The translations under genes and the position numbers were made by a program. Below the pieces are notes generated by a model. The model made no database searches. It was not told where the DNA came from and saw nothing but the letters and a program-made list of their open reading frames with translations. 64,000 bases of DNA from an uncultured Candidatus Saccharibacteria bacterium (GTDB taxonomy: Bacteria; Patescibacteriota; Doudnabacteria; UBA920), in contig CAYJQY010000006.1 in NCBI GenBank assembly GCA_964372905.1, positions 113 through 64,112 of the forward strand, in the 5' to 3' direction. Positions 17,916 through 25,812 of this stretch are shown one piece after another (position 1 is the stretch's first letter; every line of letters starts with the position of its first letter).

Positions 17916-20363
17916 ATGCATGACATAAACAGAAAACGGCATCGTCATCCTCTTTTAAGATTTATTAGGTCGATTTTTTTCGGCTTCCTCTATACCGTGC
18001 TCGCGGTTGTCGGCGGCGGCGTTGCACTCGCGCTAATCTATTATTACTTTATCGTTCCCGACGTCACAACTTTGCTCAAAGCCGGCACGCCGGCGTCAAC
18101 CAAAATTTATGACCGCAACGGCGGCCTGCTCTACGAAGTCTATGGCGAGGCCAAACGCACACCCATCTCCTTTGGGGATATCCCTGAAACTTTAAAGCAC
18201 GCGACAATATCCATCGAAGATAAAAATTTCTATCAGCACGGCGCGCTGTCAGTTCCCGGTTTGGTGCGCGCGGCCTGGATCAACTCCACCACCGGAGAAA
18301 TCAGGGAGGGCGCCAGTACCATCACCCAGCAGTTCATCAAAAATGCCTTATTGACTTCTCAACGAACGTTCCAGCGCAAAGCCCTGGAAGCGGTGCTGGC
18401 GCAAAAACTCGAATCGCGTTACAGCAAAGATGAAATACTCGACCTCTATCTCAACACCATTCCTTACGGCCGCAACGCCTACGGCGTGGAAGCAGCGAGC
18501 CAAACTTATTTCGGCAAGCCAGCCAAGGAATTGAATCTCGCCGAGAGTGCCTACCTGGCAGCCCTGCCCCAGGCCCCGAGTCTGTACAATCCGCTGGGAT
18601 CCAATCGCGCCACTTTAGATGAAAGGAAAAATTATGTGCTGATGCTCATGCGCGAGCAGGGCTACATCACGCAGCTTCAATACGACGGCGCGAAAAATGC
18701 GAACGTGACTTTTCAGCCGTCTAAGGTCACTCTGCGCGCGCCGCACTTTGTTTTTTGGGTCCAAAATTACCTCGCGGCCAAATATGGGCACGCCGCTTTG
18801 CGCGAAGGCGGGCTAAAAGTCTACACCACGCTCGACCCTGGTCTGCAAACTTTGGCGGAAAATGTGGTGCGCGACGGCGTGGCCAAAACCGCCACCCGCT
18901 ACGGCGCCCACAATGCCGCGCTAGTGGCGGTTGACCCCAAAACCCAACAAATATTGGCCATGGTTGGCGGCAAAAATTATTTTGGCGATGTGGAGCCTAA
19001 AAACTGTTCGCCGGGAAAGAATTGCTACTTCGAACCAGACGTGAATTTGGCCATTGCCCAGCGCCAGCCCGGCAGCAGCTTCAAGCCCTATGTGTATCTG
19101 ACGGCTTTCGCCAAAGAGTTCGGCTACGCGCCCGCTTCCCTACTCAACGACGTACCCACGACGTTCGGCGACGGCTATCGCCCGCGCGACTACGACGGTG
19201 GCGCGCGCGGGCGCGTGTCCATGCGCCAGGCCTTGGCCGGCTCACTCAACATTCCCGCGGTACAGACCTTGGCCCGGGTCGGCGTGGATAGCGCCATCAA
19301 GACGGCGCGCGACCTCGGCATCACCTCGCCGCTGGCCAACTGCGGACTCTCGCTGGTGCTCGGCGGCTGCGAAATCCGTTTGGTTGATCACGCAACCGCT
19401 TTTTCCGTGCTGGCCAACGGCGGCGAAAATAACGGAACCAACGGCAGCGCGACGCCCATCTTAAAAATTGAAAATAAGGACGGAAAAATTTTGGAGCAGT
19501 ACCGCCCGCGGCGCGACCAGGTTGCCGACCCGCAGGCAATTTATGAACTCACTAATATTTTGAGCGACAACAAAGCCCGCATCTTTATTTTCGGCGATAA
19601 AACGCCGCTGGTGCTGGACGATGGCACGCCCGGAAAAAACCCCCGCCCCGTGGCCGCCAAAACCGGCACCACCCAAAACTGGAAAGATGCCTGGGCTGTT
19701 GGCTTCACGCCGCAACTGGCAGCCGGAGTCTGGGCGGGCAACAACGACGGCACGCTTTTATTTCCCGGCTCCGATGGCGTCTTCGTGGCCGCGCCCATCT
19801 GGCATGAATTCATGGTGCAGGCCCTGAAAGATAAGCCGGTGAAGGAATTCCAACGGCCGCCGGGTATCACTGAAATAAAATTAAAAGATCTACCTGTGGC
19901 AATTCGCAGCAAATACATCTTCAAAAACAATCCGGAAATTTTCGCCGATTATGCTATTCCCAAAGTCCCGCCTCCCCCGCCATCCAAACCCAAGCCAGTA
20001 GCTAATTCTGCGGCATCCAAGAATACCAGCCAAAATAATACCGCTACGATAGAGCGGCCAAAAATTACCATTCTTGAACCGCAGGCCGGCGCGCCCATTG
20101 TGGATTTGCCGCTGACCGTGCGCGCCGCCATAACTTCTTCGGCCGGCGTCCAAAAAGTCGATCTTTACGTTGACGGCCAGTACATCCGCACTATCACCAG
20201 CCCGCCGTATCGTTTCATCATTCAAGGCCTGGCTCAATACGGTTTCCACACCATCACTGTCCAGGCCACGGACTGGCACAACCGGGTCACCAGCACCGAC
20301 GTGCCGATTCAGTACATCAATCCGTTTGGGAACTGGCCGGGACCGCTAAATACAACTCAATAG
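17916..20363 (+). CDS. class A penicillin-binding protein (PBP1A; glycosyltransferase + transpeptidase) with C-terminal Ig-like extension
   Basis: An N-terminal TM helix is followed by GT51 motifs (EDKNFYQHGA, RQ...). Transpeptidase motifs SSFK, SLN and KTGT are present, and a Pro-rich linker precedes a C-terminal beta domain. Confidence 0.9.
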   Translation: MHDINRKRHRHPLLRFIRSIFFGFLYTVLAVVGGGVALALIYYYFIVPDVTTLLKAGTPASTKIYDRNGGLLYEVYGEAKRTPISFGDIPETLKHATISIEDKNFYQHGALSVPGLVRAAWINSTTGEIREGASTITQQFIKNALLTSQRTFQRKALEAVLAQKLESRYSKDEILDLYLNTIPYGRNAYGVEAASQTYFGKPAKELNLAESAYLAALPQAPSLYNPLGSNRATLDERKNYVLMLMREQGYITQLQYDGAKNANVTFQPSKVTLRAPHFVFWVQNYLAAKYGHAALREGGLKVYTTLDPGLQTLAENVVRDGVAKTATRYGAHNAALVAVDPKTQQILAMVGGKNYFGDVEPKNCSPGKNCYFEPDVNLAIAQRQPGSSFKPYVYLTAFAKEFGYAPASLLNDVPTTFGDGYRPRDYDGGARGRVSMRQALAGSLNIPAVQTLARVGVDSAIKTARDLGITSPLANCGLSLVLGGCEIRLVDHATAFSVLANGGENNGTNGSATPILKIENKDGKILEQYRPRRDQVADPQAIYELTNILSDNKARIFIFGDKTPLVLDDGTPGKNPRPVAAKTGTTQNWKDAWAVGFTPQLAAGVWAGNNDGTLLFPGSDGVFVAAPIWHEFMVQALKDKPVKEFQRPPGITEIKLKDLPVAIRSKYIFKNNPEIFADYAIPKVPPPPPSKPKPVANSAASKNTSQNNTATIERPKITILEPQAGAPIVDLPLTVRAAITSSAGVQKVDLYVDGQYIRTITSPPYRFIIQGLAQYGFHTITVQATDWHNRVTSTDVPIQYINPFGNWPGPLNTTQ

Positions 20364-25812: not shown

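Follow-up and report, generated by a model that had tools for sequence, protein, structure and literature searches.

A family of giant bacterial proteins that joins an ADP-ribosyltransferase-fold domain to a C-terminal Pol-beta-type nucleotidyltransferase domain

Results

A 1831-residue protein and its layout

We analyzed a 64,000-nucleotide stretch of contig CAYJQY010000006.1 from an uncultured Candidatus Saccharibacteria bacterium (the window, taken at its full length). The subject of this work is a large open reading frame (ORF) on its minus strand which, with a small ORF upstream of it, makes up a two-gene cassette. The cassette and the parts of the large protein are listed below. Boundaries rest on phmmer and hidden Markov model (HMM) searches and on AlphaFold2 models, for which confidence is given as the predicted local distance difference test (pLDDT).

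20317..25812, minus: whole large ORF, 1831 amino acids, ATG start, stop codon at 20317-20319
23818..25812, minus: N-terminal variable region, residues 1-665, acidic, found in the closest homologues only (phmmer with residues 1-1092)
22537..23817, minus: tandem repeats of ~93 amino acids, residues 666-1092 (core positions and single-unit HMMs)
21817..22536, minus: conserved all-helical domain, residues 1093-1332, first part of the family module (AlphaFold2, pLDDT ~90)
21223..21816, minus: ADP-ribosyltransferase-fold domain, residues 1333-1530
21043..21222, minus: weakly conserved linker with one long helix, residues 1531-1590 (AlphaFold2 model)
20320..21042, minus: Pol-beta-type nucleotidyltransferase head plus neck, residues 1591-1831
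25796..25981, minus: small upstream ORF for a 61-amino-acid, basic (+7), predicted helical peptide (ORF call and overlap with the large gene)

The product of the large gene is identical to database protein P0001 and is strongly acidic, with a net charge of -64. A first-pass annotation of this DNA had described it as an uncharacterized protein with neither a signal peptide nor a transmembrane helix. In agreement with this, a crude scan gave a maximum Kyte-Doolittle hydropathy of 1.05 over 19 residues and no hydrophobic N-terminus, and homologues, where they are named, are called "hypothetical protein". Whole-protein searches of Pfam, NCBIfam, PADLOC and the PDB sequences returned no match for the query.

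To describe the C-terminal part, residues 1093-1831 were modeled with AlphaFold2 using 69 homologues. The model has a pLDDT of 91.3 and a predicted template modeling score of 0.90, and its three domains pack as one unit. It consists of an all-helical part (1093-1332), an alpha/beta part (~1333-1530), one long helix, and an alpha/beta plus helical part (1591-1831). For the NTase and ART-fold domains, conservation was counted for each residue over 231 family sequences. In the all-helical domain, P1152, G1155, F1161, S1179, P1180, D1197, N1207 and R1295 are invariant, and the motifs FIKNNLPT.GK, SPVL and NRSLR recur.

The C-terminal domain has a Pol-beta-type nucleotidyltransferase fold

The first-pass annotation had assigned a Pol-beta-type nucleotidyltransferase (NTase) to the C-terminus, a claim it staked on the predicted structure. 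The modeled fold of the last ~240 residues carries the GS, DxD and D set in the expected places: a G-[SG] loop, a [DE]-x-[DE] pair on beta-strand 2, a third carboxylate, and the alpha/beta fold of the Pol-beta superfamily. G1604-S1605 is kept in 230 of the 231 sequences, as are both D1617 and D1619, which lie on model strand 1617-1624 (beta-strand 2). D1680, within the TDIDIGF stretch that had been proposed to supply the third carboxylate, is kept in 229 and likewise sits on a model strand (1671-1685). The G-S-x9-D-x-D signature read from the sequence is thus present and meaningful, but its catalytic pair had been placed at D1615-x-D1617; because D1615 is kept in just 158 of 231 sequences, we place the pair one register on, at D1617-F-D1619. 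Residues that are invariant or nearly so are G1604, S1605, D1617, D1619, D1680, K1725, K1735 and E1748, and the key residues of the domain also include Y1734-K1735 and the GGFGGIGTENWIL motif.

Sequence methods see little of this relationship. The query has no match to Pfam NTP_transf_2 (PF01909), which is weakly matched by 8 of 17 family NTase segments (best E 8.6e-4), and a profile of the domain found nothing significant in the PDB. In a Foldseek search of the PDB, archaeal class I CCA-adding enzymes came out on top (E 5.8e-6), and further matches included PAP, Pla1, Cid1, NF90, CdnC/CdnE, OAS2 and MiD51. Structural scores against selected NTase-fold proteins were as follows.

CCA-adding enzyme 4x4n_A (215 residues aligned, 20% identity): 11.0
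Cid1: 10.0
NF90: 9.8
CutA: 9.6
TUT7 and PAP: about 9
CD-NTases and DncV: 8.1-8.5
OAS2: 7.9

A second putative catalytic domain has an ADP-ribosyltransferase fold

Residues 1333-1530 form a second putative catalytic domain, as conserved as the first and with an ADP-ribosyltransferase (ART) fold, that the first-pass annotation does not mention. Modeled alone, it reached a pLDDT of 90.1, and the model shows the split beta-sheet of ARTs. Its best structural matches are the Tpt1/DUF952/DarT group, followed by OspC3, a Salmonella effector, CteC, TccC3, LT, DT, PARPs, RES toxins and RhsP2. This relationship went undetected by sequence methods, and a profile of the domain found nothing significant in the PDB.

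The invariant residues of the domain are K1348 (in LLKGT), D1389, D1394-T-D1396, E1451 (in WELFT), and H1460 and R1464 (in HYGIRTGF). In the model, K1348 is on the first strand, D1394-T-D1396 on the second, E1451 on the fifth, and H1460 and R1464 on the sixth; we infer that K1348, the DTD motif, E1451, H1460 and R1464 would line one pocket. K1348 is kept in all 231 sequences, where the family motif reads K-G-[VTI]. Spacings from this Lys to DTD and from DTD to the Glu are 46 and 55 residues, and this order and spacing resemble the beta1/beta2/beta5 motif positions of ARTs. E1451 fits the canonical pattern, whereas the first two motif positions (K1348 and D1394-T-D1396) do not. Other ARTs have His or Arg at the first-strand position. 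The family has Lys in place of the His of Tpt1/KptA, so that KG stands where Tpt1 carries its NAD-contacting HGT (PMC6333775). Its invariant D-T-D, E, H and R set matches that of no described ART clade.

When both domains are considered together, the three NTase carboxylates and the K/D/D/E/H/R of the ART-fold domain each occur in 228 or more of the 231 sequences. Both domains are also acidic family-wide, with a median net charge of -8 each.

The module defines a large and scattered family

A first run of a word-indexed protein search returned just three hits, suggesting an orphan. It gave P0002 as the sole full-length homologue (49% identity to the query) and P0003, from gut Bacilli, as a partial one that aligns to query residues 1113-1831 only, at 32% identity, the N-termini being unrelated. 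Exhaustive HMM searching and a genome scan refuted this orphan status. When a profile of the C-terminal module was run against 1.84 billion cluster representatives, it produced 1183 hits, 813 of them with E<1e-30, so that the family comprises at least 813 clusters at 50% identity. Nearly all hits span the whole ~720-residue module and place it at the C-terminus of proteins of 700-6100 residues.

In a scan of one genome per species, we found 245 carriers of the module. They belong to many classes of Patescibacteria, also known as the Candidate Phyla Radiation (CPR), to uncultured "Gammaproteobacteria" metagenome-assembled genomes (MAGs) and to many gut "Bacilli"/Tenericutes MAGs, with one Pseudobdellovibrionaceae contig among them. 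The closest relatives, with module identities of 47-56%, are CPR or unclassified small-genome MAGs. Relatives were absent from the viral contigs of IMG/VR, which gives no support for a phage origin. Family members have no Pfam or NCBIfam match, and their sources say "hypothetical"; when the word-indexed search was repeated with the ART profile, it brought up short fragments only, named "hypothetical protein" where named. Our literature search, which included ART surveys and the Tpt1 structure paper, found neither the family nor its architecture described; it was a limited search and no proof that they are unpublished.

Some members depart from the usual form. Five of 151 representatives (P0040, P0073, P0102, P0128 and P0156) may be anchored by their tails, each ending in a C-terminal helix that is strongly hydrophobic. 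In the giants P0109 and P0112 (4932 and 6114 residues) the module is internal, with ~770 residues beyond it. On one 805-kb chromosome (L007) the family ORF (~9538-12142) is shortened to ~870 residues and adjoins an rve-type transposase gene (9184-9783), which suggests truncation by an insertion sequence.

The N-terminal repeats belong to the closest homologues

The first-pass annotation had seen a scaffold of at least five ~95-residue repeats, with an NTase head, as the architecture of the protein. The tandem repeats are real, with a unit of ~93 residues, but their number and boundaries differ: P[DE][QN][ILV] cores occur at residues 648, 677, 783, 874, 969 and 1063, and we delimit four full units (666-770, 771-861, 862-956 and 957-1050) and a truncated fifth (1051-1092) that leads directly into the conserved module. 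The core at 648 (LNYPDQ), which had been taken as the first, does not start a full unit, and that at 677 (SNPDQIDL) had been overlooked. BLAST self-comparison of the query detected no internal repeat; with single units and their counterparts in three homologues as the basis of HMMs, the remaining units were detected at 15-42 bits. As had been supposed, the repeat falls outside the TPR, HEAT, ankyrin and Sel1 families: the query has no Pfam match even at E<=1, and a ~93-residue unit is far longer than any of these repeats.

When the repeat HMM was applied to the family, four to five units at matching positions were found only in P0002, P0019 and P0027, and P0090 has one marginal unit. Among 150 family representatives, phmmer with residues 1-1092 matched the same three proteins only. 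The query shares 20-42% identity with its homologues in the N-terminal part and 49-72% in the three module domains, and we therefore regard the repeats as an add-on of the closest homologues, not as a defining scaffold. What is conserved is the ~720-residue three-domain module, and the idea of a repeat scaffold plus NTase head as the conserved architecture does not hold. N-termini are unrelated between lineages of the family. No Pfam domain was found in the N-termini of 26 other members; the giant P0109 has an N-terminal transglutaminase-like core. The Bacilli branch (L001-L004; P0003) has an N-terminal repeat of its own, LF[LI]S..AP.ELQ..FY...

A small basic peptide is encoded upstream in part of the family

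As first annotated, the small ORF runs into the start of the large gene; the overlap is 17 nucleotides. Its suggested role as a conserved partner holds for part of the family. Similar ORFs of ~55 residues overlap the start of the family gene at ten other loci from CPR and Gammaproteobacteria MAGs (L005, L008, L011, L012, L020, L026, L030, L033, L081 and L085), and the peptides share matching length, a heptad-like pattern and a C-terminal [EK]K[ILV][KR].I[KR]..L motif. The small ORF is present in ~40% of non-Bacilli loci for which upstream sequence is available and absent from Bacilli loci. It is likely that the 61-residue product is a translationally coupled partner of the large gene. In the Bacilli loci L001-L004, a conserved 106-residue ORF lies ~100 nucleotides upstream in place of the ~55-residue peptide, and the ±10-kb region of L001 also holds RhuM, ORF6N and WYL genes.

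Genomic context of the cassette

When ORFs were clustered over 79 family loci, the small upstream ORF was the sole recurring neighbor. A Pfam census of 149 immediate neighbors gave miscellaneous housekeeping genes with no defense-island signature. Neither a secretion-system gene nor an immunity gene is conserved nearby in these 79 loci or 149 neighbors, and no synteny with the window was seen.

The following features lie next to the cassette in the window.

26005..26033, minus: candidate sigma-70-like promoter with a TG extension, TTTAAA-17-TAAAAT, immediately upstream of the small ORF (consensus match only)
26098..26174, plus: tRNA-Arg(GCG) gene, one boundary of the low-GC cassette

On its other side, the cassette is bounded by the 3' end of a PBP1A gene at 20363. 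This gene (17916..20363, plus) and the large gene converge with a 47-nucleotide 3' overlap (20317-20363), and no terminator-like site was found between them. The GC content of the two-gene cassette is 43.7%, with 45% at third codon positions (GC3), and that of the small ORF is 34%, against 48-56% (GC3 48-66%) for every neighboring gene. The low GC and the tRNA-Arg site are compatible with horizontal acquisition of the cassette. Together with the sporadic spread of the family, the foreign base composition and the tRNA-adjacent site suggest a horizontally mobile accessory function, such as conflict, an effector or RNA repair, rather than a housekeeping one.

Two tRNA-Arg genes flank a Dus gene directly beside the cassette, and all six tRNA genes of the window encode their 3' CCA (26098-26174, 27246-27322, 45829-45903, 45965-46040, 58617-58690 and 58725-58799). 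On the other side, a gene for an XerC/D-type tyrosine recombinase (16320..17381, plus) lies ~3 kb from the cassette, with the PBP1A gene in between, and is divergent from an ORF with a weak RimK/ATP-grasp match (15196..16299, minus).

Farther away, the window holds a second giant ORF (1767..7280, minus; 1837 residues). We rejected the possibility that it is a paralogue of the large gene, as it encodes an unrelated alpha-2-macroglobulin-like protein (Big_5, A2M_BRD, A2M, bMG10). Between its bait-region and A2M domains is a Hint/PT-HINT segment (residues ~1076-1200) that resembles an insertion, into a bacterial A2M, of an intein-like or pretoxin-HINT element. The region 29747..44231 contains a near-complete shikimate set (aroG-type DAHP synthase, aroA, aroC, prephenate dehydrogenase) and tryptophan genes (trpE, trpB and neighbors), which are unexpected for Patescibacteria, the group in which the nearest relatives of the large protein sit. 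Downstream of a PilB-type ATPase gene (49963..51723), five consecutive large ORFs (52005..63788, minus; 501, 479, 746, 874 and 597 residues) have no NCBIfam match at E<=1e-10.

Discussion

The catalytic folds of the module are both known, and the novelty lies in how they are combined, with a sequence-orphan ART-fold domain, whose invariant residues are non-canonical, joined rigidly to a CCA/PAP-like NTase. The C-terminal domain shares its head and neck with class I CCA-adding enzymes (A. fulgidus, PDB 4x4n/1r89), but it is not one of them because the tRNA-binding body and tail are absent: the query ends ~240 residues after the start of the head, and 215 of the 436 residues of the CCA-adding enzyme align. 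It also lacks the RNA-binding domain of PAP. Unlike CCA-adding enzymes, Cid1/TUT7/GLD-2 and PAP, the query NTase is acidic, and it has no sequence-level membership in their families; in contrast to the CCA and PAP enzymes, the family NTase is fused downstream of an ART-fold domain and ends a protein of 1.2-6 thousand residues. Nor is it a CD-NTase, since both the sequence profile and the operon are absent.

The middle domain is likewise no member of a described group. It falls outside Tpt1, since it has neither the HGT motif nor the RNA lobe nor the tetrad: Tpt1/KptA has an N-terminal winged-helix RNA lobe and a tetrad made up of Arg-His-Arg-Arg, whose Arg-His-Arg sits on that lobe (PMC6333775), whereas the family has a 240-residue all-helical domain upstream of the ART-fold domain, of which ~106-109 residues can be aligned to Tpt1, where they correspond to the NAD lobe. 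Nor is it DarT, as the family gene has no conserved partner with a (DarG-like) macro domain; in the list of the commonest Pfam families of the 149 neighboring proteins, macro domains do not appear. The MenT/AbiEii NTase toxins with their small antitoxins, RhsP2 and CmdT are small single-domain proteins, whereas the family is giant and multidomain, and homology to them does not go beyond the superfamily level. Its small ORF differs from MenT/AbiEii antitoxins in occurring at only ~40% of non-Bacilli loci and in belonging to no recognizable antitoxin family.

The family is probably a two-step enzyme that modifies RNA ends or proteins. CCA-adding enzymes, terminal uridylyltransferases and PAP act on RNA 3' ends, and the substrates of Tpt1, DUF952 and DarT are phosphates or bases of nucleic acids. 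In the E. coli class II CCA-adding enzyme, the HD domain links the healing of 3' ends to the addition of nucleotides; MenT proteins are tRNA-directed NTase toxins, and RhsP2 and CmdT are RNA-directed ART toxins. Since the structural neighbors of both domains point to nucleic acids, and given these precedents, we tentatively favor a reading, which may well prove wrong, in which NAD+-dependent ADP-ribosyl or phospho-transfer is combined with NTP-dependent nucleotide addition at RNA (tRNA-like) 3' ends.

Under this proposal, the rigid ~720-residue C-terminal module would be the working part, with two putative active sites that act on one substrate, most likely an RNA 3' end such as that of tRNA. 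With NAD+, the ART-fold domain would ADP-ribosylate or de-phosphorylate a phosphate, ribose or base at the terminus, and the NTase domain would add nucleotides from NTP with the help of two Mg2+ ions coordinated by D1617, D1619 and D1680. The fast-evolving N-terminal ~1090 residues, including the 93-residue repeats, may supply targeting or regulation, and the small basic upstream peptide could be a bound partner, an inhibitor or a chaperone.

Several observations weigh against RNA 3'-end modification. The canonical ART triads H-Y-E, R-S-E and H-H-h are unmatched in the family, which makes the use of NAD+ less certain. The parts with which the nearest structural relatives hold RNA, i.e., the body and tail of the CCA-adding enzyme and the lobe and tetrad of Tpt1/KptA, are the parts that the family lacks. 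Lastly, the ART-fold and NTase domains are acidic, which is hard to reconcile with a broad RNA-binding surface and agrees better with basic proteins or small molecules as substrates.

This acidity is one reason to consider a protein-directed dual effector or toxin, in which both domains act on proteins of the host, the prey or the producing cell, the ART-fold domain by ADP-ribosylation and the NTase domain by nucleotidylation (AMPylation or UMPylation). The variable N-terminus would then serve delivery or targeting and the small basic peptide would be an inhibitor or a chaperone. Acidic catalytic domains throughout the family suit basic protein targets; the patchy distribution, mainly in episymbiotic CPR and uncultured lineages, the foreign base composition of the cassette relative to its flanks, a small ORF arranged as in a toxin-antitoxin or chaperone pair, and the transglutaminase-like core of one giant member are all consistent with an effector. 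We nevertheless consider it unlikely. The top matches of the ART-fold domain belong to the Tpt1/DUF952/DarT group, which is directed at nucleic acids or phosphate, and those of the NTase domain are RNA polymerases, with the protein AMPylators GlnE and DrrA not among the matches listed. There is no secretion signal and no conserved secretion-system or immunity gene nearby, and the module is 32% identical over 720 residues between CPR and Bacilli, far above what is typical of fast-evolving toxin domains.

The first-pass annotation had compared the protein with, among others, cGAS/DncV-like signaling enzymes, and its NTase fold stands. A synthase of this kind, cGAS/DncV- or OAS-like, would make cyclic or linear oligonucleotides upon a trigger sensed by the repeats or the ART-like domain, and the variable N-terminal repeat region could act in sensing. 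Weak matches to SMODS (E 0.018-0.042) and to PADLOC "Cyclase" (E 0.013) were each seen in a single family member, while PADLOC finds nothing for the query. CD-NTases, cGAS and OAS score below the RNA 3'-end polymerases, the partners of a cyclic-oligonucleotide-based antiphage signaling system (CBASS) operon are missing here, and no effector or receptor gene is conserved adjoining the family gene in 79 loci. In addition, no relatives were seen on the viral contigs of IMG/VR and the loci show no defense-island context, and a sensor role leaves the invariant, active-site-like constellation of the ART-fold domain unexplained. The protein is thus probably not a cGAS-like sensor, and we rate signaling synthesis as improbable.

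Equally improbable in our judgment is a pseudo-enzyme role for one of the domains, in which it would only bind NAD, ADP-ribose or a nucleotide and thereby regulate the other. The non-canonical ART triad (K / DTD / E) would agree with this, as would the presence among the matches of MiD51 and NF45/NF90, which have inactive, nucleotide-binding NTase folds, but the NTase carboxylates and the ART K/D/D/E/H/R are retained in no fewer than 228 of 231 sequences, as would be expected of catalytic residues. An enzyme that modifies a small molecule (an antibiotic or metabolite), by analogy with the rifampin ART Arr and with ANT/Lnu/GrpB-type NTases, is very improbable: acidic surfaces would be compatible with cationic small molecules, but matches to these enzymes are weaker or cover the minimal core only, a ~1800-residue protein with variable scaffolds is atypical of resistance enzymes, and the neighbor census shows no resistance or biosynthetic context.

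Returning to RNA 3'-end modification, we can extend it to a possible, though doubtful, proposition: the family may be an unrecognized class of bifunctional nucleic-acid-end enzymes, in which a new Lys/Asp/Glu ART clade and a CCA/PAP-like NTase modify the same RNA (or DNA) terminus under control of the small basic peptide, and which genome-reduced or episymbiotic bacteria (CPR and some gut Bacilli) may deploy against hosts, phages or competitors.

To our knowledge, most large proteins of Patescibacteria and uncultured gut Bacilli have no known function. The family described here accounts for more than 800 protein clusters without a Pfam or NCBIfam match, concentrated in these same groups. If true, the proposed ART chemistry would extend the list of ART catalytic motifs, and if both activities cooperate on RNA ends, the module would represent a novel chemistry for modifying or repairing RNA, or a novel type of toxin.

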